Assembly: GCA_963727985.1 (NCBI GenBank)
Contig: CAVSIL010000009.1
Span: 39,670 to 103,669, forward strand
Direction: 5' to 3'
DNA: 64,000 bases
Origin: an uncultured Solirubrobacterales bacterium
GTDB lineage: Bacteria; Actinomycetota; Thermoleophilia; Solirubrobacterales; 70-9
Shown: positions 9,855 through 52,043 of the stretch, in pieces
Layout of the letters: each line of letters opens with the position of its first letter
How positions within the stretch are numbered: position 1 is the first letter of the stretch
Made by a program: the position numbers and the translations under genes
Notes under the pieces: generated by a model
The model's database searches: none
Seen by the model: the letters and a program-made list of their open reading frames with translations, nothing else
What the model was told of the DNA's origin: nothing

Positions 9855-10520
9855 TGTGCACCGATGGATGCATCGGTTGCCAGATCGCGCCTTCCCCGCG
9901 AGGACCGGATGGAGCAGACGCTGCTTGCGGCGCATGCGCTGTTTGCCGAGCGTGGCTACGCGGCGGTGAAGATGGATGAGATCGCGGCCGCGGTCGGGGT
10001 CACGAAGCCGCTGCTCTACAACTACTTCGGCAACAAGGAGCAGCTCTACATCACCTGCATGGAGCGGGCGGGCGACTCGCTGACGGCGACGGTGGCCGAG
10101 GCGGTTGCCGACAGCGACAGCCCCGGCGACGCGCTCGGGGCCGGCGTCCGTGCCTTCTTCGCCTTCCTCGACAGCGACCGGGCCGCCTGGGCGGTGCTCT
10201 TCGACGAGACCCTCCCCCGCGGCGGCGAGGTCGCCGAACGGGTCGCCGACTACCGCGGCGCGATCGTCGAGCTGGTCTCCGGCTCGATGCTGGCGCAGCT
10301 GCCACAGGGCAAGCGCGACGCCGCCCGGATCGAGATCGAGGCCCTCTCCACCGCCCTGCTCGGCGCCGCCGAGGCGCTCGCCCGCTGGTGGCTGCGGACC
10401 GAGGAGATCGGCGCCAACGACGCCGCCGAGCTGCTGATTTCGACGATCGAGCCCGGCCTGCGGGCCCGCTCGGGCTCCCCCACTTCCAACCCCCCCGACC
10501 AAGGAAACAACAACTCATGA
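9852..10520 (+). CDS. TetR/AcrR-family transcriptional regulator
   Basis: FAERGYAAVKMDEIAAAVGVTKPLLYNYFGNKEQLY is a TetR HTH. The stop overlaps the next start (ATGA). ATG 9864 is an alternative start. Confidence 0.85.
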   Translation: MCAPMDASVARSRLPREDRMEQTLLAAHALFAERGYAAVKMDEIAAAVGVTKPLLYNYFGNKEQLYITCMERAGDSLTATVAEAVADSDSPGDALGAGVRAFFAFLDSDRAAWAVLFDETLPRGGEVAERVADYRGAIVELVSGSMLAQLPQGKRDAARIEIEALSTALLGAAEALARWWLRTEEIGANDAAELLISTIEPGLRARSGSPTSNPPDQGNNNS

Positions 10521-13135
10521 ACAGCAAAACCCGCCGGGTTGCCGTCGTCGGCGGCAACCGGATCCCGTTCGCGCGCTCCAACAGCGTCTACTCGCACGCC
10601 TCCAACCAGGACATGCTCACCGCCGCCCTCGACGGGCTGATCGACCGCTTCAACCTCGACGGCGAGGCCCTCGGCGAGGTCGCCGGCGGCGCCGTGCTCA
10701 AGCACTCCCGCGACCGCGACCTGGCCCGCGAGAGCGTGCTCAGCACCCGCCTCGCCCCGGAGACCCCCGCCTACGACGTCCAGCAGGCCTGCGGGACCGG
10801 GCTGGAGACGACGATCCTCGTCGCCAACAAGATCGCCCTCGGGCAGATCGACTCCGGCATCGCCTGCGGCGCCGACACCACCTCCGACGCCCCGATCGCG
10901 CTCAACGAGCAGCTGCGCGAGACCCTGCTCGACGCCAACCGCCAGCGCTCGACCCTGGGCAAGCTGCGCACGCTGGCCAACGTCCGCCCCGGGCACATCG
11001 TTCCCTCGGTCCCCCGCAACGAGGAGCCGCGCACCGGCCTCTCGATGGGTGAGCACTGCGCGATCATGGCGACCGAATGGGAGATCGGCCGGACCGAGCA
11101 GGACGAGCTGACCCTGGCCAGCCACGAGAACCTCGCCGCCGCCTACGAGCGCGGCTTCCTCGATGACCTGATCACTCCCTACCTGGGCCTGGAGCGCGAC
11201 CAGAACCTGCGCCCGGGCTCCAGCCTGGAGAAGCTGGCGAAGCTGAAGCCGGTCTTCGGCGGCCCCGAGGGGACGATGACCGCGGCCAACTCGACCCCGC
11301 TCAGCGACGGCGCCTCGGCGGTGCTGCTGGCCTCCGAGGAGTGGGCGAAAGAGCGCGGCCTGCCGATCCTCGCCTACATCTCCGAGGGCCAGACCGCGGC
11401 CGTCGACCACGTCCACAAGCGCGAAGGGCTGCTGATGGCGCCCGCCTACGCGATGCCGACGATGCTCGACCGCGCCGGCCTGAAGCTGCAGGACTTCGAC
11501 TACTACGAGATCCACGAGGCCTTCGCCGCGCAGGTGCTGTGCACGCTGAAGGCCTGGGAGGACGCCGGCTTCTGCCGCGAGAAGCTGGGCCGCGACAAGC
11601 CGCTCGGCAAGATCGACCGCAAGAAGCTCAACGTCAACGGCGGCTCGCTGGCCGCCGCCCACCCGTTCGCGGCGACCGGCGGCCGCATCGTCGCCGGCCT
11701 CGCCAAGCAACTGCACGAAGACGGCACCGGCCGCGGCGTCATCAGCATCTGCGCCGCCGGCGGCCAGGGCGTCGTCGCCATCCTCGAGAGCGCCGGAGGC
11801 CAGCAAATGAGCGACCGTTACTCGCAACTCGTCAACGCGCCCGTCGTCTCGACGGTCGCCAAGCAGCTGGGGCTGCCGCAGCCGGTCAGCCTCGACCGCT
11901 ACCGGGAGGGCGCTCCGGTCGTGGCCGGGCCCGTCCTCAGCGGCGCCGCCCCCGGCGGTCGTCTCGACCAGTACCTGCCGGGCTTCCTCGACCGGATCAA
12001 GGCCGAACGGGCCGGGACCGAGGGCAAGGCGAAGGCGCTCGTCTTCGACGCCACCGGGATCGCCGACTCGACCGAGCTGGTCGAGCTGCAGCGCTTCTTC
12101 TACCCGGCGGTCGGCCGCCTGCAGCGCAGTGGCCGCGTCGTCGTCATCGGCACCCCGCCGGCCGCGGCCGGCTCCGCCCGCGCCCACACCGCCCAGCGGG
12201 CGCTGGAGGGCTTCACCCGCTCGCTCGCCAAGGAGATCGGCGGCCGCGGCGCAACCGCGCAGCTGGTCTACGTAGAGAAGGGCGCCGAGGGCGAGCTCGA
12301 CTCGACCCTGCGCTTCCTGCTCTCGCCGCGCTCGGCCTACGTCTCGGGCCAGGTCGTCCGCGTCGGCAAGGGCGTGACGGCAACGCCTCAGATCGACTGG
12401 GAGCGCCCGCTCGCCGGCAAGGTGGCCCTGGTCACCGGCGCCTCGCGCGGCATCGGCGCCGCGATCGCCGCCACCCTGGCCCGCGACGGCGCCAAGGTCG
12501 TCGGCCTCGACATCCCCCAGGCCGCCGACGACCTGCGCGCGGTCACCGGGGCGATCGACGGCGAGGCGCTCGGCCTCGACATCACCGCCGCGGACGCCCC
12601 GGAGCGGATCGCCTCGCACTTCGCCAAGGGCGGCGTCGACATCGTCGTCCACAACGCCGGCGTGACCAAGGACCGCACGCTGGCGAAGATGCCGGAAGAG
12701 CGCTGGGCGCAGCTGATGGAGATCAACCTCTCCTCCGAGGAGCGCATCAACGACGCCCTGCTCGACGGCAAGCGCCTCAACCCCAACGGCCGGATCGTCG
12801 GCGTCTCCTCGATGGCGGGGATCGCCGGTAACAACGGCCAGACCAACTACGCGACCTCCAAGGCCGGCGTGATCGGGATGGTCGAATCGATGGCGCCCGA
12901 GCTGGCCAAGCGCAAGGCGACGATCAACGCCGTCGCCCCCGGCTTCATCGAGACGAAGATGACCGCGGCGATGCCGATCGGCCCGCGCGAAGCCGGCCGC
13001 CGGCTCGCCAGCCTCAGCCAGGGCGGCCTGCCGGTCGACGTCGCCGAGACGATCGCCTGGTTCGCCAGCCCTGCCTCGACCGGCGTCAACGGCAACACCG
13101 TCCGCGTCTGCGGCCAGAGCCTGCTGGGGGCCTGA
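10517..13135 (+). CDS. Acetyl-CoA acetyltransferase (thiolase) and FabG4-type two-domain 3-oxoacyl reductase in one continuous 872-codon ORF
   Basis: The thiolase part runs 10517-11806 (QQACGTGLE, NVNGGSLAAAHPFAATG). From ATG 11807 (MSDRYSQLVNAPV..) the sequence is FabG4-like (GKVALVTGASRGIG, NYATSKAG). There is no stop between them. Confidence 0.85.
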   Translation: MNSKTRRVAVVGGNRIPFARSNSVYSHASNQDMLTAALDGLIDRFNLDGEALGEVAGGAVLKHSRDRDLARESVLSTRLAPETPAYDVQQACGTGLETTILVANKIALGQIDSGIACGADTTSDAPIALNEQLRETLLDANRQRSTLGKLRTLANVRPGHIVPSVPRNEEPRTGLSMGEHCAIMATEWEIGRTEQDELTLASHENLAAAYERGFLDDLITPYLGLERDQNLRPGSSLEKLAKLKPVFGGPEGTMTAANSTPLSDGASAVLLASEEWAKERGLPILAYISEGQTAAVDHVHKREGLLMAPAYAMPTMLDRAGLKLQDFDYYEIHEAFAAQVLCTLKAWEDAGFCREKLGRDKPLGKIDRKKLNVNGGSLAAAHPFAATGGRIVAGLAKQLHEDGTGRGVISICAAGGQGVVAILESAGGQQMSDRYSQLVNAPVVSTVAKQLGLPQPVSLDRYREGAPVVAGPVLSGAAPGGRLDQYLPGFLDRIKAERAGTEGKAKALVFDATGIADSTELVELQRFFYPAVGRLQRSGRVVVIGTPPAAAGSARAHTAQRALEGFTRSLAKEIGGRGATAQLVYVEKGAEGELDSTLRFLLSPRSAYVSGQVVRVGKGVTATPQIDWERPLAGKVALVTGASRGIGAAIAATLARDGAKVVGLDIPQAADDLRAVTGAIDGEALGLDITAADAPERIASHFAKGGVDIVVHNAGVTKDRTLAKMPEERWAQLMEINLSSEERINDALLDGKRLNPNGRIVGVSSMAGIAGNNGQTNYATSKAGVIGMVESMAPELAKRKATINAVAPGFIETKMTAAMPIGPREAGRRLASLSQGGLPVDVAETIAWFASPASTGVNGNTVRVCGQSLLGA

Positions 13136-13136
13136 G

Positions 13137-14087
13137 GTGGCGACCCGCACCCTCGAGGGCTCCCCGAGCATCCTGCCGCTCTACGCGCGGGCGGCGGCGC
13201 CGATGATCCCCGGCGCCTCGCTGCTGCCGTTCGTCCCCGGCGGCGGTGGCGAGATCCCCGACCTCGACCTGCGGCTGGAGGGCGTCGTCGCCGACCCGGC
13301 CGACGTCGCCGCCTACGCCAAGGTCTGCGGCTTCGCCCTGCGCGACTCGCTCCCCGTCACCTACCCCCACGTGCTCGCCTTCCCGCTGCACATGGCGGTG
13401 ATGGCCGACGGCGGCTTCCCCTTCGGCGCGGTCGGCCTGGTCCACGTCGAGAACCGGATCGAGCAGCGGCGCCGCGTCGGGATCGGCGAGGAGCTGACGA
13501 TCCGCGTCCGTCCGACCAAGCTCGCCCCCCACCCCAAGGGCCAGACCTTCTCCCTGCTGACCGAGGTCATCGCCGGCGACGAGCTCGTCTGGCAGGGCAC
13601 CAGCACCATGCTGCGCCGCGGCAAGCCCAGCACCTCACCCAGCTCCTCCGAACCGCATCAAGTTTCCCGCCCCCCAGCCAGGAAATTTGATGCAGTTCGG
13701 GAGGGGGAGCTGAAGGCCAGCGCCGAGTGGAGGCTCGGAGGCGACCTGGGGCGGCGCTACGCGGGCGTCTCCGGCGATCGCAATCCGATCCACATGCACT
13801 CGCTGACCGCGAAGCCGCTCGGCTTCCCGGGGGCGATCGCGCATGGAATGTGGACCAAGGCCCGCTGCCTGGCGGCGCTGGAGGGCCGCCTGCCCGATGC
13901 CTTCGCCGTCGACGTGCGTTTCCGCAAGCCGATCCTGCTGCCCGCCCGCGTCGAGTTCGCCAGCGTCACGGAGGGCGAGGAGATCGCCTTCGCCGTGCGC
14001 GACGCCAAGCGCCAGACCCCTCATCTCGACGGCCGCGTGACGCCGCTCAAGCCCAACTCCAAAGCCAAAACCAGGAGGAAGAAGTGA
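13137..14087 (+). CDS. MaoC-like double hot-dog (R)-hydratase/dehydratase (HtdX-like)
   Basis: GTG start 2 nt after the upstream stop. C-terminal hot-dog motif YAGVSGDRNPIHMHSLTAKPLGFPGAIAHGMW. Confidence 0.8.
   Translation: MATRTLEGSPSILPLYARAAAPMIPGASLLPFVPGGGGEIPDLDLRLEGVVADPADVAAYAKVCGFALRDSLPVTYPHVLAFPLHMAVMADGGFPFGAVGLVHVENRIEQRRRVGIGEELTIRVRPTKLAPHPKGQTFSLLTEVIAGDELVWQGTSTMLRRGKPSTSPSSSEPHQVSRPPARKFDAVREGELKASAEWRLGGDLGRRYAGVSGDRNPIHMHSLTAKPLGFPGAIAHGMWTKARCLAALEGRLPDAFAVDVRFRKPILLPARVEFASVTEGEEIAFAVRDAKRQTPHLDGRVTPLKPNSKAKTRRKK
13648..13700. repeat. Palindromic element family 1, copy 1 (inside the MaoC-like CDS, in frame)
   Basis: CCGAACCGCATCAAGTTTCC-N13-GGAAATTTGATGCAGTTCGG. Arms and loop match the copies at 21438 and 41183. 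Confidence 0.85.
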
Positions 14088-31392: not shown

Positions 31393-31478
<86 letters not shown>

Positions 31479-39946: not shown

Positions 39947-40340
39947 TGCTCTTGGTCGTGAACTTCGAGGGGCACTTCGTGATCAGGGTTTCCGGCTCGC
40001 CGACGAAGGTGCCGCCCTGGATGGCGCCGGTGAGGACGATCTCGCGGCCGCCGCGGAAGGGGTCCGGCACGGTGCCGGTGTAGGTGACCGGCAGGGCCGG
40101 GCTCTTGCCGTCGCGGTCGACGACGCGGAAGGCGATGCCGGCACCCTCGTGGTGGACCGAGCCCTTGACGACCCTGCCGGTCATCTCGTAGCTGGTGCCG
40201 GGGGCGGCGGTGAGCAACTGCGAGGGCTCCTTCGCCTCGGTCGAGGCCGAGAACGAGGTGTAGATCAGGGCCACCGAGAGCAGCACGGCGACGCTGAGCG
40301 CGACCACGAGGCGGATCTTGCGCTTGCGCTGGGGGTCCAC
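39939..40340 (-). CDS. ccmE: Cytochrome c maturation heme chaperone CcmE, Cys-type variant
   Basis: N-terminal TM anchor and an OB-fold body (VPDPFRGGREIVLTG). KCPSKF occupies the position of the canonical AKHDENY heme-binding site. Confidence 0.85.
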
Positions 40341-40368
40341 GACGTCGGGATTATCGCAATCTGGTCGC

Positions 40369-40442
40369 GGCGGCGGGTGCCCCGGGGGTCGGCGGACGCG
40401 CTTCGCGCTGAGTGTCCGGCGACCCCCGGGGCACCCGCCGCC
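40369..40442. repeat. Long GC-rich inverted repeat (23-bp perfect arms, 28-nt spacer)
   Basis: GGCGGCGGGTGCCCCGGGGGTCG at 40369-40391 is the exact reverse complement of 40420-40442. It lies between divergent ccmE and an SDR gene. Confidence 0.9.
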
Positions 40443-40467
40443 CGTCGAGAGCTGGGAGAATCACGGG

Positions 40468-41184
40468 GTGAGCGATCAAGGCGCAAGCGACCCGGTTCTG
40501 CTGATCACCGGCGCCAGTAGCGGCATCGGGGCCGCGACCGCGCGAGCGGCGGCCGGGAAGTACCGGTTGGTGCTGGCGGCGCGGCGGCTGGAGGAGCTGG
40601 AGGCGCTGGCTGCGGAGCTCGGCGGCGAGGAGCGGGCGCTGGCCGTGCGCTGCGACGTCACCGAGTGGGACCAGGTCGAGGCGATGGCCGCGGCGGCCTT
40701 GGAGCGCTTCGGCCGCATCGACGCCGTCTTCGCCAACGCCGGCTTCGGGGCGACCCGCGGCTTCCTCGAGGAGTCGCCCGAGCACTGGCGCTCGATGGTC
40801 CTGACCAACGTCTACGGGGCGGCGCTGACGATCCGCGCCACCCTCCCCCACCTGCTCGAGCGCGGCGACGGCCACTTCCTCATCACCAGCTCGATCGCGG
40901 GACGGCGGGCGCTGCCGGGCTCGCTCTACTCGGCGACCAAGTTCGCCGCGACCGCGATCGGCGAGTCGCTGCGAGCGGAGCTGCGGCAGATGCACGAGAA
41001 CACCGCGATCAAGGTGACCCTGATCGAGCCCGGGATGACCGACACCGACTTCTTCGACAACCGGCCCGGCGAGTGGGCGCTGCGCGACACCGACATCGCC
41101 AAAGCCGTGATGTACGCGCTCGAGCAGGGGCCGGACGTCGACGTCAACGAGATCCTGATCAGGCCGACGAGCCAGCCGATCTGA
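40468..41184 (+). CDS. Short-chain dehydrogenase/reductase
   Basis: GTG start. LITGASSGIGAATA, NAG, YSATKFA. Confidence 0.85.
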   Translation: MSDQGASDPVLLITGASSGIGAATARAAAGKYRLVLAARRLEELEALAAELGGEERALAVRCDVTEWDQVEAMAAAALERFGRIDAVFANAGFGATRGFLEESPEHWRSMVLTNVYGAALTIRATLPHLLERGDGHFLITSSIAGRRALPGSLYSATKFAATAIGESLRAELRQMHENTAIKVTLIEPGMTDTDFFDNRPGEWALRDTDIAKAVMYALEQGPDVDVNEILIRPTSQPI

Positions 41185-41231
41185 ACTGCATCAGATTTCC
41201 GGCCCGACAGCCAGGAAATTTGATGCAGTTC
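41183..41231. repeat. Palindromic element family 1, copy 3 (fills the gap between convergent SDR and GT2 genes)
   Basis: GAACTGCATCAGATTTCC-GGCCCGACAGCCA-GGAAATTTGATGCAGTTC, 17 of 18 bp paired. The SDR stop TGA 41182-41184 overlaps its first bases. Confidence 0.9.
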
Positions 41232-41232
41232 G

Positions 41233-42255
41233 CTAGGGGAGCAGGAGGCGGATCAGCCGCCAGTAGCCGCGGAGGATGAGGCGTGCGGGCAGTGAACGGG
41301 CGGCGGGAGAGATGAAGGGGGAGTCGAGGTCGGCCGTCAGCCAGGAGGCGAACTCGGCGGCGCTGACCGTGCGGGTGGCCTGGACCTGGCGGCGCTCGCG
41401 CAGCAGGCGTGGCAGCCAGCGCAGGAATTCCCAGTTGGCAGCGAGCTTCTGGCGTCCCCAGCCGCCGGAGGCGGAGACGGCGAGCAGCGCCAGCTCGGTC
41501 GCCAGCAGGGCCGGCGCCAGCAGGATCAGCAGCGAGGTCGGGTAGGCGCGGACGAGGAAGGCGAGGCGGTTGCGCTCGAGCCAGCGCCACTTGTGCTCGC
41601 GGGCGCCGAACTCGTAGTCGTGGTCGACCACGGCCGCGGGCTCGATCCCGAGCGTGCCCCCGCGCAGCCGCAGCCGCAGCGAGAGGTCGACGTCCTCGTG
41701 GTAGAGGAAGAACTCGCCGGGGAAACCGCCGACCTCGTTCCAGGTCCGCAGCGGGATCGCCAGGCAGGCGCCGGAGAGGACCGTGACCTCGCCGGCCGGC
41801 GGCGCCGCCGCGATCGGCTCGCCGTGCCCCCCGGCCCAGACGATGCCGGTGAAGTGGATCGGGTTGCCGGCGGAGTTGATCCGGGTCCCGCCGGCGTCGG
41901 CGACCAGGGCCTGCCAGGCGGCCCAGCCGCGACCCTGCAACCAGGGCCGCCGAATCGCCGCGCCGAAGCCGGGCAGCGGCGCCGCATCGGGGTTGAGGAT
42001 GACCAGCAACTCGCCGCCGGCCACCGCGGCGCCGGCGTTGCAGCCGGCCGCGAAGCCGAGGTTGGCGCCGGTCTCGACGACCTTCGCCGACGGCGCCAGT
42101 TCCCGCACCGCCGCGGCCGTGCCGTCGCCGGAGTCGTTGTCGACGACGATCAGCTCGTCGCCCTCCCCCAGCTCCGGCAGCAGTGCCGGCAGGGTCCTGG
42201 CCAGCTCGTCGCGGCTGTTCCAGGCGACGATGAGGACGGAGAGCGTCGGAGGCAC
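41233..42255 (-). CDS. Family 2 glycosyltransferase
   Basis: LSVLIVAWNSRDEL..VVDNDSGDGT..NLGFAAGCN..GACLAIP..FFLYHEDVDLSLR. Confidence 0.85.
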   Translation of the reverse strand: MPPTLSVLIVAWNSRDELARTLPALLPELGEGDELIVVDNDSGDGTAAAVRELAPSAKVVETGANLGFAAGCNAGAAVAGGELLVILNPDAAPLPGFGAAIRRPWLQGRGWAAWQALVADAGGTRINSAGNPIHFTGIVWAGGHGEPIAAAPPAGEVTVLSGACLAIPLRTWNEVGGFPGEFFLYHEDVDLSLRLRLRGGTLGIEPAAVVDHDYEFGAREHKWRWLERNRLAFLVRAYPTSLLILLAPALLATELALLAVSASGGWGRQKLAANWEFLRWLPRLLRERRQVQATRTVSAAEFASWLTADLDSPFISPAARSLPARLILRGYWRLIRLLLP

Positions 42256-42309: not shown

Positions 42310-45073
42310 CTACTTCTTCTTGTTCGACTTCTTGCACGAGCTGATGTTCAGCCTGTACTTGTTGTTCTTGACCTTCTTGCTGTTCTGGCCCTTGAGGTTC
42401 AAGACGGCCCTCTGCTGTTCCTTGCAGAGATTGCTCGAGTTGACCAGCAGGCTCTTCTTGCCCTTTTCCATGGTCAGGATGAACTTGCTCACGGCCACAT
42501 CGGGCACCGTCGGGAAGACGGTCTTGAGACCGCCTCGCTTGGAGCTGATGACGCCGCGCAACTGGACGTTGATCTGTCCGCGGAGGTCGGCTACCAGGTT
42601 CGGCAACTTGTCGTTGGACGAGACCAGGTAGACCGGACCCTTGAGGAGGTCGTCCAGCAACGGCGACTTCGCCTTTGCGTGCCCGTAGATCGCTGCCTTC
42701 GGGCAGCTCTGCGCCGCCAGCTGGACCCTCGTGCACACCGTCTTGATGTGACTCTGATCGAGGAACAGCGAGTGCGGCAACGTCAACGCCGCACGGCCGA
42801 GGTTCGCATCGCCTTTGCGTGTTTCCAGGATCGCCCGGATGCGCGGGTTCTTGGCCCGCTTGGGCGAACCGTAGAGCCGGGTGAACAGCTTCGGCTTGAA
42901 CTTGAGGCTGTTGCAGCCGGTAGCCGAGTACGGAGCGCTGATCGGGTAGGAGCTGAACGCGCCCGGATTGGCCGGATCGGCCCCCCCGCCGCTGACCGTG
43001 CCGCTGCTGCCTCCGGACGAGCAGTTCGTCGGGTTGAGCATGAAGTCCGCTCGATTTACGTCGACGTCGATCGAGCGAATGTCCAGCTTCACCCCTCCGA
43101 ACACGTTCGGGATCACATCCGACAGCGCCGTGATCTGGGCGGTTTCGGGGTTGACGTGGAGGGCGCTCCTGACGACCACGGTGCCGAGGTCGTAGGGGCC
43201 GGCGACTGCCGGCGTGATCACGACCGCTGAGAGCGGCGCCCCCTTGTAGGGACCCGCCAGATAAGCCTGGCCCCCGATCTCGAGCGGACCGCCGCCACTG
43301 CCGGCCGCGACTGTCGCGGTTCCGATCTGACTGGCAAACGGACAACTCGGGCTCAGCGCCTCAGTCGTCCCTCTGGCTGCACCCGCCGCGGCGATCGCCG
43401 CCTCCGAGCAGTATGGAATCCCGGCGAGTTTGCCGGTCAGGCCCGGGGGCAGGGTGACGTTGACGGCCTTGAGCTCCTGTTCGCCGTCACGGCGGGCGAA
43501 CTTGACGTGGAACGGGCTGTAGGCGCCCGCCTGACTCGTCGTCGAGTTCGCCTCGTACTTCGGTGCGAACTTCCGCGCCGCCAGGGTCGCCGGGCAGCTG
43601 CCGCCGCTCGGGTCGCTGGTCAGCGTGAAGGACGAGGTCGGTTCGTTTTCGTCCGGGTTCCCCGACCAGGGATCGAGCACCGTCTTGGTCTCGTGCGGCC
43701 CGCAGATCGGCGGGACTGGTCAGCGTCCCCTTCGGGCCACCGTCGAACTTCACCTTGAAGGAGCGGAACGTCGCCTGCGGGTTTTCCTCCACGACCGCGG
43801 TCAGCTGACCGGTTACCGGGTCCGGGAAGACGTGCCCGATCAAGGCGCACGTTGACCCCGTAGCGGTCCGACCCGACATGGAGGAATATCCGGAACTGTT
43901 CGCCGCTGGCCGGGTTGTCGCTCTTCGGTTCGCCGACGTAGACGGTGCCGAACAGCGAGTCCGCCGGGCAGCGAAGGCGTCTGCACCTCGACGGTGCCGA
44001 TCTTCGAAGCGGCGGGACAGGCGATCGGGTCGTTGGTGTGGTACGCGAACTGGGCATCCGTGCAGGCGACCAGGCCGTTGGCGGAAGCGGGGTTCAGGCC
44101 CGTCCCTTCCGGCAACGTAACCGTGGCCGTCTTCAGATACGAGTTGGCGATCGGCTTCGTTGGGATCGAACGGGATGCCGACGTTGACGGTCGTCGCCAG
44201 CGGCGAGTCGACCGCGTCTCCCTGCGGGGTGACGTTGATCGTCGGGTTGAACGGCACCAATTCGCATCCGCTGCCTTCGAACGGAGTATCAAAAGATTCT
44301 TCGGCGGAATGGCTTTCGACCGCATAGGGGGGGCCGTAGGAATCGACGAAGAGGTGCGAGGTCTGCGGGCCTTCGCAGTTACTCGGCAACGTCAGGTAGG
44401 TGCCGTTACCAGCCTGGCCGTTGAAGACGAGGCGGGAGCCGATGACCGGCGGGCTCAGCGGCGGATTCGGTGCGTGGACGTCGCTGATCGTAAAGGTCAC
44501 GTGCTGATCGACGGGATCCAGTGATCCGACGATGAAGACCGGCCCCGTCAGGGTCAGGAACGCGACCATCGAAGGCACTCCTTCGAAGGGCACCACGTTG
44601 TAGACCGGCAGCGCCACGCGTTTCTGTTCCACGGGCGTTGTGTTGGTCACGACCGTCTCGTAGTTGATCCCGACCTGAGCGCCCGGGCAACTGACCGGGG
44701 CCGTCGGCAACTGCGCGATGCTGCACTTGGGGGCCGCCTCGGGATTGACACTCAGGCCTTCCGGGGTTTCGACAACGATGTCTTTGACAAAGTCGTCAGG
44801 GAAACCACCCGTGCTATTGAGCGTGAAGTCGGTGATGGCAAAATTCGGGTGCCCTGCGGCCTGCGTATACCACTGGCTCGACGGGCTGCTTTCCGTGCAC
44901 GGATTCGGCGACGGCGTCAGGGGTGGTACGGCAGGACCCACTTCGGAATCGACGTTTTCTTTGCACGTCATCGTTTCCCAATTTTCGATGCCGAATGCAC
45001 CTTGAGCCGCCGGCGCCGCGAAAACAGCGCCGAAAGCCATCACTGCAGCTAAAACGATCAATCGCCTAGCCAT
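42310..45073 (-). CDS. Secreted ~920-aa four-module Cys-loop repeat protein, unrecognised family (paralog A; at least four frameshifts)
   Basis: GAGGAGG RBS. Signal peptide MARRLIVLAAVMAFGAVFAAPAAQG/AFG. Segments in ORFs 43487..45073, 43840..44325, 43620..44057 and 42310..43680 align to paralogs B and C. Tail ..CKKSNKKK. Confidence 0.7.
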
Positions 45074-45235
45074 TCAAATCCTCCTCGGTAACCCATTTGA
45101 GCGAACCACGCTTCCCCTGCGTAGCGCTCTGTCACTTCTCCCACCAAAGACAGTAGCGGGCGGGGCGCGTGGGTCAAGTGCGATTTGCGACAAATTGGCC
45201 AGCAGGTCCTGTCCAATAGGTACAAACCGGCACAG

Positions 45236-47946
45236 CTAGCGCTTCATTTTTCGGTGCGATTTCCTGTGGCATGGGGTCTTCAGCCGCGGCCGCTTGCCGA
45301 GCTTCTTCCCGTTCTGGGCCTTGAAGCGGACGATCGCCTTGATCCCCTTGCCCTTGCAGAGGTTCCTCGAGGCGACCAGGAGGCCGTGCTTGCCGCCGGG
45401 CAGGATCATCGTGAACTTCGAGACCGGCACGTCGGGCACGTGGCCAAAGGTGGTACGGATCCCGCCCTTGAAGCTGTCGATGCGGCCGACGAGGTCGATG
45501 CCGACCTGGCCCCGCAGGTGGGCGACCAGGTCCGGCAGCGGGTTGTTGGAGGAACGTAGGTAGACGGGGCCCCTCAGCGGTTTGCCCAGCAGCGGCGTGA
45601 CCGCCCGAGCGCGGCCGTAGCGCGAGCGCTTCGGGCAGTCGTTGGCGGCGAACTGGACCCGGGTGCAGATCTTCGACAGGCTGGCCTGGTCGAGGAAGAG
45701 CGCGTGCGGGAGGCCGACCGAAGCGCGGGCGATGTTGGCGTCGCCGCGCCGTGCCTTCAGCACCGCGCGCAGGCGCGGGTGCTTGGCCCGCCTGGTCGCT
45801 CCGGACAGCCGCAGGTTGAGCCTGGGCCGGAACTTCAGCCGGCGGCAGCCGTTCAGCTGGACCGGGTCGGAGACCGGGAAGGACGAGAACGCCGCCGGGT
45901 TGGTCGGGTCGGCGCCGCCGCCCTTCAGCGAGCCGGCCGTTACCTGCGGCTTGCAGTTGGTGCCGTTGAGGGTGAAGTTCTTCTTGTTGATCTTCACCGC
46001 GACCGAGCGGATGTCCAGTTTGGCGCCGCCGAAGACGTCCGGGATCGCGTTGGTCGCGGCGCGGATCCGGGCCGTCTCCGGATCGACGAAGAGCGGCACC
46101 CTGACCACGACCGTGCCGAGGTCGAAGGGCCCGGCGACCGCGGGCGTGACCACGACCAGCGACACCGGCGCACCCCCGTAGGGGCCGGCGAGGAAAGCCT
46201 TGCCGGCGATCGTCAGCGGGGAAGCCCCGGTCCCCGTGGCGATCGTCGCGACCCCGACCTGGCTCTTGTCGGGACAGCTGGCGTTGGCCCGCTCGGCCAC
46301 CCCCGCCCGCGCCGCCGCGGCGGCGATCGCGGCCGGCGGGCAGTAGGGGACGCCGGCCAGCTTCGCGGTCGCGCCCGGAGGCAGGACGATGTCAACGCCC
46401 TTCAGCTCCTGCTGCCCGTCGGTGCGGGTGAGGCCGGCGGCGAAGGGCGTGAAGGTGGCGGCTTTGGCGCTCTTCGGGCCGGCCTTGAAGCCGGGCGCGA
46501 AGGGCCGGGCCGCCATCGTCTTCGCGCAGGGGCCGCCGCCGGGCGCATTGCTCAGCGTCAGCGGGCCGGTCGGCGCCGCGGCGGCGTTCCCCGACCAGGG
46601 CGAGATCTGGGTCGTGGTCGTGTTGGCGCAGATCGGCGGGCTGCTCAGCGGCGCTTTGGCGCCGCCGGCGATCTGCAGCTGGAACGAGCTGAAGGCGACC
46701 TGCGGGTTGTCGGCGAAGACCGCGGTCAGCTGGCCCGTCTGGGGATTGGCCTTGACGTTCCCGATCAGCCGCACCGAGAGTCCGTAGCGGGGTGACTCGG
46801 CATCGACGAAGACGCGGTACTCGTTGCCGGAGGCCGGGTCGCGGCTGAGCTGCTGGCCGAGGAAGACCCTGGCCGGCAGCGAGTTGGCCGGCAGCACCGG
46901 GGTCTGGATCGCGGCGGTGCCGATCTGCGAGTTGGCGGGACAGGCGACCGGGTTCCTGGTCCCCTTGCCGAGCTGGGCGTCGCTGCAGAAATGCAGGTCC
47001 GGCGCCGAGGAGGGGTTGAGCCCGAGCCCGCGCGGCAGCGAGACGTTCGCGGTGCGCAGGTCGAGGAGTTCAGCGGCTGCAGGCCCTGCGGGACCTTGAG
47101 GTCGACGGTCACGCCGGACGGCGAGTCGGTCGTCGGCGATTCGGAGGCGCTGGAGACCGTCGGCGCGAACGGGACCGACTGGCAGCCGTCGCTGTTGGCC
47201 GGTGGCTTGGTCGTGTAGGTCTGGAACTGCCCCGGGTTCTCGTAGGAGTCGACCTTGAGGGTCGTGGTCGAGGGCGCGTTGCACTGGCTCCCCATGGTCA
47301 GGAAGGTGCCGCCCTTGGTCCCGTCGAAGACGAGCCGGTTCTCGACCAGCGGCAGCGTCGTCGGGATCTCGCTGATCGTGAAGCCCTCGTGGTAGTCGCC
47401 GTCCTAGGCGACATCGGCGACCAGGTAGACGTTGGCGACCGGGATCCCCGGCAGGCCGACGCTGAAGCCGAACAGCGCCGGCACCCCCTGCGGCGGGTCG
47501 AGGTTGTAGACGGGGAACGGCAGCGGCCCGACCGGGAGCCCGAGCACCTCGGAGGTCACTTCGCTGATCCCGACCTCGCTGCCCGCGCAGTTGAGGGTGT
47601 TGGCTTCGAAGCTCGCTTTCGCGCACTGCGGGACCGCCTGCGGATCGACGTTGAGGCCCTCCGGGAGGTCGACCCGGGCATCCCTGATCGCGCCTTCGGG
47701 AGCACCGCCGATCGGCGGCGGGCCGCCGGCGAGGTTCATCGCGAAGTCGGTGAGGCCGACCGGCGGGTGCCCGGCGGCCTGGGTGAAGAACTGCGCGCTT
47801 GGGCTCGAGTAGGTGCATTTCGGGGCGTCGGACTTGCAGGTGCCCGCTTCCCACTTGGAAACGCCGAAGGCGGCCTGCGCGGCCGGCGCGGCGATTGCCA
47901 GCGCGAGCGCGATCGCCGCGGCGAATGTCCCCAGTCGAACCCTCAT
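45236..47946 (-). CDS. Secreted ~900-aa four-module Cys-loop repeat protein, unrecognised family (paralog B; about three frameshifts in the first third)
   Basis: Signal peptide MRVRLGTFAAAIALALAIAAPAAQA/AFG. About 620 codons are intact (ORF 45236..47854). Tail ..CHRKSHRKMKR. Confidence 0.75.
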
Positions 47947-47958
47947 CGGTTCTACGCC

Positions 47959-50836
47959 CTACCCATTGCGAACGCTTCTCAACCGGCCCTTGCCGCGGCA
48001 GGCCGGAACTCGCAGCTTCAGCCGCTTCTTCTTCAGCCGCTTGCCGTTCTGGGCTTTGAAGTTCATGAACGAGAAGGAGCGGTGGGCGCAGAGGTCGCGC
48101 GAGTTGACCAGGAGACCGCGCTTGCCGCCCTTCATCGTCAGCACGAACTTGCTCACCGGCACATCGGGCACGGGGTAGAAGACGTTCTTGATCCGCCCCC
48201 TGGCGGAGCCGATGACGCCGTGCAGCTGCACGTTCACCTGGCCCCTGAGGTCGACCAGAAGGTCCGGCAGCGGATTGTCGGAGGAGACCAAGTACACGGG
48301 GCCGGCCAGTTCGTCGTCGAGCAGCGGCGTCCGCGCCCGCGCGTAGCCGTAGATCGCGGCCTTGGGACAGGCGTGCGCCGCCAGCTGGACCCGGGTGCAG
48401 ATGGTGCGGATGTGGGACTGGTCGAGGAACTGGGAGTGCGGCAGGGTGACGGCGGCGCGGCCGATGTTGGCGTCGCCGTCGCGGGCAACGAGCACGGCGC
48501 GGAATTTCGGGTGCTGGGCGCGCTTGGTGCTCTTCCTGCCCCCGTAGAGACGGGTGAACAGCTTCGGCCTGAAGCGAAGGGCGTCGCAGTCGCTGGTCTG
48601 GAACGGGGTGCTGACCGGGAAGGCGCTGAACGCGGCCGGGTTGGCCGGATCGGCGCCGCCGCCGTTGAGGACGCCGGCGCTGGCGAGCGGGCCGCAGCTG
48701 GTCGGGTTGAGGGTGAAGTCCCTGCGATCGATGTTGACGTCGACAGAGCGAATGCTGAGCTGGGCGCCGCCGAAGACGCTGGGGATCGGGTCCGAGACGG
48801 CGCGGATCTGCGCCGTCGCCGGGTCGACGAACAGCGCCACCCGCACCACGACCGTGCCCAGGTCAAAGGGCCCGGCCGTGGCGGGGGTGACGACTGCCAG
48901 GGAGAGAGGGGCCCCGTGGTAGGGGCCTGCGAGGAAGACCTTGCCGTCGGCTATGCGGAGCGGCGCCGGGCCGGTGCCGGCGGCGATCGCGGCGCTCCCG
49001 ACGAGGCTGCCGGCGGGACAGCTGGAACTGGCGCGCTGTTCGCCGCCGCCGCTCGCGGCCGCCGCGGCCAGGGCCGACTCCGGGCAGTAGGGAATGCCGG
49101 CGAGCTTGCCGGTCATCCCCGGCGCCAGGGTGACGTCGACGCCCTTCAGCTCCTGCTGCCCGTCGGTGCGGGCGATCCGCATCGTCAGCGGGCTGAAGGC
49201 GCCGGCCTTGGTGCCCTTCGGCCTCGCCTCGAAACCCGGGGCGAAGGGGCGTTCGGCGAGCGCCTTCGCGCAGGCGCCGCCACCGGGGGCATTGGTGAGG
49301 ACGATCGGCGCCGAGGGCGTGGCCGCCGGGTTGCCCGACCACGGGGTGAAGCTCGAGCCGGCCCGGGTCGCGCAGATCGGGGGACTGGAGAGGACCGCCC
49401 GCGGGCCGCCGTCGAAGTCGAGCTCGAAGGAGCTGAACGGCACCTGCGGGTTGTCGGCGACGGTCGTGGTCAGCTGCCCCGTCCGCGGGTCGGCGCTGAC
49501 GTTGCCGAGCAGCCGCACGTCGATCCCGTAACGGTCGGACTTGGCGTCGATGAAGATCCGGTACTCGTTGCCGGAGGCCGGGTCGCGGCTGAGCTGCTGG
49601 CCGGCGTAGACGTTGCCGGTCAGCGAGCCTTCGGGCAGCGGCGGCGATTCAATCGTGACCGTGCCCACTTTCGAGGCGGCCGGGCAGTCGGTTCCCGGCG
49701 CGCTGCTCTGCTTGCGGAACTGCGCGTCGCTGCAGGTCTGCAGCCCGGCGGCGGCGGAGGGGTTCAGTCCCATCCCGACCGGCAGCGCGACCCGCGCGGT
49801 GCGGGTGTCGGAACTGTCCTGGTTGCCGCCGCCGAGGATGTGCGGCACGTCGACGTCGACCCTGGCCCCGGCGGGCGAGTCGGTCGCGGCGGTACCCGGG
49901 TCGACCGCGAGCGACGGGTCGTAGGGGATCGTCCCGCACTCTTTGGGCGAGGTCCCGGGTGGGATCGGCGACTCGAAGCGCGGTTCGGCGTCGCGCGGGA
50001 ACTGATATCCGGCGCTTTCCTCTTCGGCGTAGGAGGCGGCCAGCAGGTAGGTGGAGTAGAGATGCCCCGACGGCCCCGGGAAGCCCTCGCCGAGACAGGT
50101 GCTGGGGGTGGTGATGAAGGTGCCGTCGCCGGCGGTGCCGTCGAAGACCAGGCGGTTTTTGAGGATGACCCCTTCCAGCCCCGGCAGTTCGAGCCGCTTT
50201 CGGGACGGCGATCGTGAAGCCCTCGTGGAAGTCGCCGGCCCAGGCGACGTCGGCTTTGAGGAAGATTTCCTTGCCGAGCAGTTCGAGGCCGAAGCGGGCG
50301 GGTTCGCCGTTGGGCGGTTTGATGTTGTAGACGGCGGTCGGCGGGATCGGGAGAGGGATGCCGATGATGGGGTCGGCCGCGGTGACGGTGGCGGTACCGA
50401 CCCGAGCCCCGACCGCGTCGCAAGAGCTGGCGGAGGCTTCGAAGGTGGCGAGGTCGCAGCGCGGGGTCGCTCCCGGGTTGACGCTGAGGCCGACCGGCAG
50501 GTCGACGCGAACGTCCTTCAGTTCCCCGACCGGTTTTTCGAGGGGCCCCGGTTCGCTGTGTTTGACGATGAACTGCGTGAAGCCGACGGGCGGATGGCCG
50601 GCTGCCTGTTCGAAGAACTGGGCGGGGGTGTCGACGCTGCAGGTCGGAGTGTCGACGGTGCAGGTTCCCGCTTGCCAGCCGGAGTCGACGGTCGGGTTCT
50701 GCGGATCGCTGGGGGCGATGATGCCGCCGGTGTTGGCAGCGGCGAGCGAGGCCACCGGCCCCAGGGCGAGCAAGCACAGCATCAGCCCAGTCACGGCTCC
50801 GATCCATCCCGGTCGTTGCATCCCTCTCCGTTGCAT
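47959..50836 (-). CDS. Secreted ~950-aa four-module Cys-loop repeat protein, unrecognised family (paralog C; frameshift(s) near 50200)
   Basis: GGAGG RBS. MQRRGMQRPGWIGAVTGLMLCLLALGPVASLAAA signal. 629 intact codons (ORF 47959..49848). Tail ..RLKLRVPACRGKGRLRSVRNG. The stop lies 12 nt from the start of B. Confidence 0.75.
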
Positions 50837-51970: not shown

Positions 51971-52043
51971 AGCGGACGACGGGGTTCGAACCCGCGACCT
52001 CGAGCTTGGGAAGCTCGCGCTCTACCAACTGAGCTACGTCCGC
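51971..52043 (-). tRNA. tRNA-Gly (anticodon CCC)
   Basis: Minus strand GCGGACGTAGCTCAGTTGGTAGAGCGCGAGCTTCCCAAGCTCGAGGTCGCGGGTTCGAACCCCGTCGTCCGCT folds as a canonical cloverleaf. Confidence 0.9.

Follow-up and report, generated by a model that had tools for sequence, protein, structure and literature searches.

A REP/RPE-like family of 51-bp coding palindromes at gene ends and in frame within genes of uncultured Solirubrobacterales

A palindromic unit and the closest described systems

How can a repeat occupy protein-coding genes without destroying them? Two papers (PMC10969869, PMC3733652) that summarise the work of Ogata et al. (2000, 2002) present Rickettsia palindromic elements (RPEs), the classic case, as palindromic repeats that lie between genes and also in frame in many unrelated housekeeping genes. 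Di Nocera et al. (PMC3733652) describe repetitive extragenic palindromic (REP) sequences with GTAG or CGTC tags that lie within genes, repair genes often among them, in Opitutus, Thioalkalivibrio, Xanthomonas and Rickettsia. Here, we describe a 51-bp palindrome that occurs three times in a 64,000-nt stretch of contig CAVSIL010000009.1 (assembly GCA_963727985.1) from an uncultured Solirubrobacterales bacterium, and that runs in frame through a gene for a MaoC-like dehydratase. The whole of this stretch is referred to below as the window. An earlier note on this DNA had placed the element correctly; its limits are shifted slightly, the conserved unit being 51 bp at each of the following positions:

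13649..13699, copy 1, CGAACCGCATCAAGTTTCC-CGCCCCCCAGCCA-GGAAATTTGATGCAGTTCG, which on the + strand, in element frame 2, reads EPHQVSRPPARKFDAVR
21438..21488, copy 2, in the orientation opposite to copy 1, read on the + strand in element frame 3 within a DUF255/thioredoxin-like gene
41182..41232, copy 3, intergenic, between convergent genes for a short-chain dehydrogenase/reductase (SDR) and a family 2 glycosyltransferase (GT2)

That these are copies of one element, as first proposed, was borne out by matching the arm GAACTGCATCAAATTTCC against the window with up to three mismatches: six matches were found, forming three inverted pairs, whereas 0.01 were expected from dinucleotide-preserving shuffles, none of which (0 of 100) attained six. 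A repeat-finding program recovered the same three places as the direct family D14 and the inverted pairs I1, I8 and I10. Copies 1 and 2 are 84% identical when compared as inverted copies and 72% identical as direct copies. For each of the three, a hairpin with a 19-bp stem is predicted on either strand (−29 to −40 kcal/mol), with fold z-scores of −4.3 to −6.3. The arms have a G+C content of about 40% within a window of 64–76% G+C, and the element occurs there at a density of about 1 per 20 kb.

We scanned species-representative genomes with a degenerate arm pattern and obtained at least 119 loci. The pattern search suggested earlier thereby revealed a repeat family: among the matches listed there are at least 58 further complete elements in 25 species-level metagenome-assembled genomes (MAGs), 24 of which are labelled Solirubrobacterales and one Actinomycetota only. 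Together with the three window copies, this gives at least 61 copies, on which the family counts below are based, and clustering of their flanks reduces them to about 45 distinct sites. The MAGs SMAG_U742 and SMAG_U535 hold at least nine and at least eight copies, respectively, and a single decayed copy was found, in a MAG that bears the label uncultured Actinomycetes. Independent assemblies from ENA, JGI and NCBI, produced from both short and long reads, contain the element.

The arms are near-identical across the 25 species, and the spacer between them is exactly 13 nt in all 62 of 62 copies. Because one further base is conserved on each side of the arms (C in 56 of 61 copies and G in 55 of 61), the unit is C-GAACTGCATCAAATTTCC-N13-GGAAATTTGATGCAGTTC-G, or 51 bp. 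The earlier note had described a conserved 13-nt loop; the length stands, together with a loose pattern that is itself palindromic (nnCCYRSYRGGnn), but the loop sequence is not conserved. The element has no open reading frame (ORF) of its own. Among the matches listed, those in other phyla are single arms only, which we take to be chance, and no solo arm was found in the Solirubrobacterales loci. The one match in viral contigs, also a single arm, was rejected as a family member on the same grounds. Searching the elements against Rfam gave no match at the gathering threshold, only sub-threshold matches to generic hairpins (microRNA precursors) with E ≥ 0.014.

How does this unit compare with the systems mentioned above? 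The element and the RPEs are alike in that a family-specific peptide is added, in the present family probably at positions compatible with the fold, and in that insertions are common to related species. In-frame copies of the Solirubrobacterales element were found at eight distinct sites, with two peptides and with Pfam domains around the insert. In contrast, RPEs are given in these papers as approximately 100–150 bp and as inhabiting the AT-rich, reduced genomes of obligate intracellular Alphaproteobacteria, whereas the present element has 51 bp with AT-rich arms and belongs to a free-living actinobacterial lineage of 70% GC. RPE-4 and RPE-6 are described there as bearing a CGTC tag, whereas our element ends in CGAAC/GTTCG and has most of its copies in contact with stop codons. 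No relationship between the sequences is evident, the two being set apart by their descriptions and not by comparison with RPE consensus sequences. Both its length and its occurrence in Solirubrobacterales MAGs separate the element from the RPE-1 to RPE-10 families of Rickettsia. The comparison with Rickettsia offered in the earlier note is apt as an analogy, in that approximately one in six distinct sites (8 of about 45) lies in frame in housekeeping genes, although such insertions are not restricted to Rickettsia (PMC3733652).

The resemblance to REPs and REPINs, including the intragenic REPs of Opitutus terrae, Thioalkalivibrio and Xanthomonas, lies in the short hairpin palindromes, in their location mostly just downstream of genes and in the lack of target-site duplication (PMC3733652, PMC3116915). 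REPs, too, are occasionally in frame, including in DNA-repair genes (in our case Mfd), and are persistent and uniform within a lineage. Our 61 copies at about 45 sites are dispersed hairpins, mostly at gene ends, and show no target-site duplication. However, REPs are imperfect palindromes of 20–40 bp arranged as variable dimers, whereas the element is a single, perfect 51-bp palindrome with a fixed 13-nt spacer; its ends are CGAAC and GTTCG in 55–56 of 61 copies, and neither GTAG nor CGTC occurs in the unit. Actinomycetota are not among the hosts described in the two REP papers (PMC3733652, PMC3116915).

Two more distant systems deserve comparison. [quoted passage not shown] The coding palindromes of Nematomorpha mitochondria are also perfect inverted repeats within coding sequence, with both arms translated, but they are organellar, reach up to 284 bp and do not form one dispersed family located both at gene ends and in genes (PMC6649704). 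Integron attC sites were rejected, because the ends ..CCGAAC / GTTCGG.. do not fit the RYYYAAC...GTTRRRY cores and because the copies stand singly among core metabolic genes and in ORFs, without cassette arrays. CRISPR was rejected in view of the lack of arrays, and an intein because 17 aa is too short.

A literature search found no description of such repeats in Solirubrobacterales, Thermoleophilia or other Actinomycetota, in agreement with the earlier note, which knew of no case in high-GC genomes of actinobacterial type. Because the element works like RPEs and intragenic REPs but fails the sequence-level membership tests of both, we conclude that it constitutes a new, undescribed REP/RPE-like family of coding palindromes, that is, a new family of a known phenomenon.

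Reading frames and copies within genes

The unit comprises 17 codons and contains a stop in frame 1 only, a TGA at positions 40–42. In frame 2 the unit encodes ELHQIS-x5-KFDAVR and in frame 3 NCIKFP-x4-GNLMQF, and because the unit is a palindrome, both of these frames are open in either orientation. Since the unit is 17 codons long, an intragenic insertion never shifts the reading frame, whichever way it faces, and in two of the three phases it adds 17 residues. When the coding frame through each copy was judged from the G+C content of third codon positions (GC3) on both flanks, 17 of the 61 copies were found to run through a gene, at eight distinct sites; in 11 of them the gene reads the element in its frame 2 and in the other six in its frame 3, frame 1 being unused. 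The 11 and six are counts of copies. Several further genes stop at +42 in the element, which is its own TGA. Insertions in phase 1 survive only near C-termini, where the TGA of the element then serves as the stop codon, and this frame logic explains which insertions survive. The in-frame hosts are as follows:

HtdX-like MaoC dehydratase, four species
DUF255 thioredoxin-like protein, four species
MoeA, within the MoCF_biosynth domain, two copies/species
Amidohydro_1 enzyme, two copies/species
Mfd, one
DUF1990 protein, one
APH-type kinase, one
Membrane protein, one

Pfam domains flank or span the insert in the MoeA (MoCF_biosynth), Amidohydro_1, APH, Mfd, DUF1990 and DUF255 proteins. To judge from such placements, intragenic copies appear to survive at tolerant positions, for example in the inter-domain linker of the HtdX-like protein, and the intact frames suggest that the insert is translated together with its host. 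The two host genes in the window are:

13137..14087, + strand, host of copy 1: a MaoC-like (R)-hydratase/dehydratase of 316 aa and of the double hot-dog type, a homolog of HtdX from mycobacteria
20407..22431, + strand, host of copy 2: Thioredox_DsbH/DUF255 with a GlcNAc 2-epimerase-like region

Copy 1 corresponds to residues 172–188 of the 316-aa protein (peptide EPHQVSRPPARKFDAVR), and the frame is intact. Because Pfam matches MaoC_dehydratas at residues 206–293 and, weakly, FAS1_DH_region at residues 72–130, the insert lies between the two hot-dog halves, where the earlier note had located it. Its further suggestion, that the approximately 17 additional residues sit in a linker between domains, agrees with the best PDB match, HtdX (4oob, 3wew; E = 7e-47): in that alignment, residues 172–188 fall in a gapped, Pro/Lys-rich linker between the halves. 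AlphaFold, run on a shallow alignment of 24 orthologs, returned a model with a mean predicted local distance difference test (pLDDT) score of 36, which was not used.

We surveyed the orthologs through the alignment of 24 and the linkers of the 120 closest homologs, which are 77–98% identical; homologs share a conserved neighbourhood consisting of thiolase, SDR, MaoC and two acyl-CoA dehydrogenases. The linker is the sole hypervariable segment among the 120. The element peptide is present in at least 19 of them, and 20 have a short linker and a total length of 305–308 aa, so that orthologs without the insert, 305–307 aa in length and proposed beforehand as a comparison, do exist. At the DNA level, the MaoC site is without the element in loci L120 and L122, whereas in L121 it is occupied by a near-consensus copy; loci from three further species (L073, L102 and L114) also have the element there. 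It had been argued beforehand that the same peptide at this position in orthologs from unrelated genomes would mean that there was no insertion. The peptide is indeed shared, yet the insertion reading stands, because the same palindromic DNA underlies it in L121, L073, L102 and L114, because other orthologs are empty and because this DNA is also found within unrelated genes and in intergenic positions. On this comparison of orthologous sites, the MaoC insertion is old and has been inherited by several species, in which its boundaries are identical, and the peptide is not a native motif. A neighbour-joining tree of 115 MaoC orthologs (six with an undelimited linker were omitted) was poorly resolved and star-like, with linker types A, B, C and empty scattered over it.

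Several repeat families may recurrently use the linker of the HtdX-like proteins as a landing site, because other orthologs hold two other, unrelated palindromes at this place. In 34 of 120 orthologs, the type B palindrome, which is imperfect (GCCGACGGGCCGAAAAGTCG...CGACAAATCGGCCC; L124:10505-10570 and L110:2022-2070), encodes PADGPKSR..KSAHRPGVGE; a palindromic copy related to it lies elsewhere, in L110. The type C palindrome, also imperfect (GGACGCAGTTTCCGCCG/CGGCGGGAAGTACGTCC; L125:10499-10540), encodes NAVVPGMREEVRS in 34 of 120 orthologs.

Two observations concern the genes preceding MaoC. At 10388-13135 of the window, a single ORF of 915 aa covers the thiolase and an SDR protein of 442 aa, whereas they are two genes with a 4-nt overlap in L121–L124 and two separate genes in L120; the single ORF is either a real fusion or an indel error. 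At 9819-9856, there is an AT-rich palindrome with a perfect centre (CACATTACTCGCATATAAA/TTTATATCCGGGTAATGTG), which may be an operator; at this place, the related contigs L123 and L124 carry a TetR-family gene before the thiolase operon.

Copy 2 is likewise in frame within a gene, a point absent from the earlier note. In the window, this DUF255 gene is split over several frames by five extra-base events (at 20504-5, 20780, 21058, 21557 and 22149) relative to the 97.7% identical contig L123, which has an intact 672-aa ORF holding the element in frame. Because different genes are broken in L123, namely those for thiolase and acyl-CoA dehydrogenase, the comparison of the two contigs suggests that the frame breaks are assembly indel errors and not pseudogene decay. 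The neighbouring MMPL gene of the window changes frame near 22840. The DUF255 orthologs of L124 (655 aa) and L125 (663 aa) are without the element, and the boundary is identical in the four species that contain it, GTTC followed by T. Judged by its presence in several species and the empty sites of others, the DUF255 insertion is old.

Gene ends, constraint on the arms and alternative explanations

Outside genes, the element is found with regularity at stop codons. In the window, copy 3 fills the entire gap between the following convergent genes:

40318..41184, + strand, SDR ORF ending in copy 3, with adh_short from residue 60, so that the true start is probably further downstream
41233..42255, − strand, GT2 gene, whose stop touches copy 3

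The SDR stop, TGA (41182–41184), is the first codon of copy 3, where the consensus has CGA, and the GT2 stop (CTA on the + strand, 41233–41235) adjoins its last base. Removal of the 49-bp core of copy 3 would leave the convergent genes with an overlapping CTAG stop. In the family as a whole, the non-intragenic copies lie mostly 0–4 nt past a stop codon and often form the whole spacer of convergent genes: 25 gene ends fall in the interval from −3 to +12 nt around an element, and for 21 of these the distance does not exceed 4 nt. Gene ends within 4 nt are often found on both sides of the same copy. Stop-codon usage next to the elements does not differ from background, and TAG or CTAG was accordingly rejected as an insertion target; neither a stop-codon preference nor a target motif accounts for the nearness to gene ends. 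There is no T-run past the hairpin on either strand, the left flank being rich in C and the right flank in G, and the interior of the stem is AT-rich. The element is therefore not a canonical intrinsic terminator, and a Rho-independent terminator was rejected as an identity for it. We also rejected an extension of the palindrome into the flanks, because the complementarity of the C-rich and G-rich flanks equals the shuffled expectation and is compositional only.

Copies at 10 orthologous sites common to different species allowed rates to be compared. At these sites, divergence amounts to 7.7% in the arms (38 bases), 16.7% in the flanks (mostly coding) and 37.8% in the 13-nt spacer. At the DUF255 site, the arms differ at 0–5 of 38 positions, whereas 4-fold degenerate positions differ by 20–36%; some intergenic pairs have identical arms and nine differences in the 13 spacer positions. 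In 10 copies, stem pair 21-37 shows a compensatory change, with CG replaced by UA (Fisher p = 5e-7), and the pairs 16-42 (p = 0.007) and 9-49 (p = 0.018) covary as well. Covariation of the whole structure was not significant in a shuffle test, with these three individual pairs alone covarying, because most arm pairs are invariant. Because of the divergence contrast and the compensatory changes, we conclude that the arms are maintained, as are their pairing and the spacing of 13 nt, whereas the sequence of the spacer is free.

What kind of element is this? We consider that copy 1 is probably one copy of a small palindromic repeat of the REP/RPE type, non-coding by origin and non-autonomous, whose family is restricted, in the genomes sampled, to a clade of uncultured Solirubrobacterales of 70% GC. 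The spread of such a repeat might be due to a mechanism of the HUH/REP-associated tyrosine transposase (RAYT) type or the IS200-IS605 type, one that works on the folded hairpin and produces no duplication. At gene ends, the hairpin, at −30 to −40 kcal/mol, could act on the 3′ end of the mRNA by affecting its stability, read-through or ribosome release. REPs of E. coli act in this manner, as hairpins on mRNA 3′ ends. The constancy of the arms might be due to a sequence-specific partner, either a mobilising enzyme or a binding protein, and the intragenic insert would be a passenger peptide in linkers and loops. A more specific proposal, which we put forward only tentatively, is that the arms are under purifying selection at the nucleotide level, even in ORFs, as a 19 bp + 13 nt + 19 bp site for a dedicated, vertically inherited partner; candidates for such a partner would be a domesticated HUH/RAYT-like enzyme and a protein that binds the hairpin or the duplex.

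Several points weigh against a mobile repeat of the REP/RPE type. First, the three genes lying between neighbouring copies in the loci encode a P450, a class IV aminotransferase and an ORF without a Pfam match; no mobilising enzyme is among them, nor a RAYT, the HUH Y1 transposase by which REPs and REPINs are mobilised. Second, no recent insertion polymorphism was seen, and the sole close pair, the window and L123 (about 98% identity), shares both copies. Third, the insertion boundaries are not clean: in MaoC, where the linker is hypervariable, the boundary does not define a target, and the DUF255 boundary gives a net gain of +42 nt. Fourth, the element has neither the GTAG nor the CGTC tag of the REP superfamilies (PMC3733652), and without a T-run, it is no terminator. 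Fifth, translation of the insert is deduced from intact frames and not observed. Finally, the conservation of arms at old orthologous sites is unexpected for decaying selfish DNA and fits host function or homogenisation equally well.

This last point leads to the alternative that survives best, in which the element would be a cis-element of the host, kept by purifying selection and not primarily selfish. It would serve as the binding site of a dimeric protein or as a structured RNA recognised by its sequence, with intragenic copies kept because they are useful. We regard this as possible, though on balance doubtful. In its favour, at the 10 sites, the divergence rate of the arms is below half that of flanking coding DNA and approximately one-fifth that of the spacer; the genome-rare codons AAA, TTT, AAT and TTG persist in the arms despite a GC3 above 0.9; and the spacer length is fixed in 62 of 62 copies, with symmetrical changes in the two arms. 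The lack of target-site duplication, transposase and solo arms, together with the near-identity of the arms in 25 species, points in the same direction. However, copies lie in unrelated genes and at hypervariable spots, and their placement follows no logic with respect to promoters. Related species have empty orthologous sites and show no visible compensation, and the density in the window is only about 1 per 20 kb. The cis-element and the REP/RPE-type repeat are moreover not mutually exclusive, in that a long-term association of the REPIN-RAYT type would look alike.

An origin as a classical MITE is very unlikely and largely refuted; the element would then derive by deletion from an IS with a DDE transposase, and the 19-bp arms would be its terminal inverted repeats. 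In favour of this, the arms do have the look of such repeats, and the copies are non-coding and dispersed. A direct-repeat test for target-site duplications, made at boundary offsets of 0–7 and lengths of 2–6, gave counts equal to the shuffled expectation, and only 13 nt separate the arms. Nor were longer relatives or solo ends present in about 1 Mb of loci, in which no transposase adjoins the copies or lies between them.

Equally improbable, in our view, is a sequence resembling an uptake signal, which would have been spread and homogenised by biased recombination in the manner of the Neisseria DNA uptake sequence (DUS) and the Pasteurellaceae uptake signal sequence (USS). These sequences also occur as inverted pairs behind genes and in tolerant coding regions. 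Such an origin would fit the conservation across species, including at orthologous sites, the placement both behind genes and in coding regions and the lack of transposition signatures; but the arms never occur singly and always stand exactly 13 nt apart, and the density is approximately 50-fold below that of DUS or USS.

Could the intragenic 51 nt escape translation, through ribosome bypass or RNA removal, as in the hopping of T4 gene 60 or the 'byp' elements of yeast mitochondria? A very stable hairpin within a coding sequence would suit this explanation, for which we see hardly any room: the length is an exact multiple of three, frame 1 is used at 0 of 8 sites (p of about 0.04 if the frames were equally likely), gene callers read through the element in independent assemblies and no matched take-off and landing codons are evident. 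A native linker peptide or an assembly artefact without any insertion, to which several orthologs with the same peptide at the same place and the probable assembly indels of the window might point, is refuted for practical purposes by the same DNA in unrelated genes and between genes, by orthologs without the element and by its presence in independent ENA, JGI and NCBI assemblies.

Other features of the window and implications

The window contains a second family of short palindromic repeats, GCTGTTCCTT-N18-20-AAGGAACAGC, which has a variable spacer, as well as several structural RNAs found with Rfam:

29696-29735, 53112-53149 and 61067-61105, second palindromic family, also at L008:4373-4411, L017:599-637 and L123:6618-6657
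29328-29663, − strand, bacterial RNase P RNA, class A
29097-29242, − strand, c-di-AMP (ydaO) riboswitch
31393-31478, + strand, tRNA
51971-52043, − strand, tRNA

The second-family copy at 53112 has a TGA 11 nt upstream and a TCA 2 nt downstream and appears to lie between convergent gene ends, and that at 29696 is located just 5′ of the RNase P RNA gene. At 42424-49810, there are three tandem paralogous units of approximately 2.7–2.9 kb each, 63–75% identical; on the minus strand, they appear to code for large proteins of low complexity that are probably secreted.

The 51-bp family extends protein-coding palindromes from AT-rich, reduced genomes such as those of Rickettsia to free-living, uncultured soil Actinomycetota of 70% GC. 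The simplicity of its unit, 51 bp or 17 codons with one stop in one frame, explains how a repeat can occupy essential genes without destroying them. For the annotation of these MAGs, this means that the element can give rise to enzyme inserts of 17 residues, to C-terminal tails that stop at an internal TGA and to tiny gaps between convergent genes. If the arms are indeed maintained as the site of a dedicated partner, the family would represent an order-wide, long-lived 'coding REPIN' system in Actinomycetota, whose 17-codon length and stop-free frames would allow it to live in essential genes. The contrast between constrained arms and a free 13-nt spacer, together with orthologous sites that are filled in some species and empty in others, could provide a natural test of whether such a repeat is selfish or functional.

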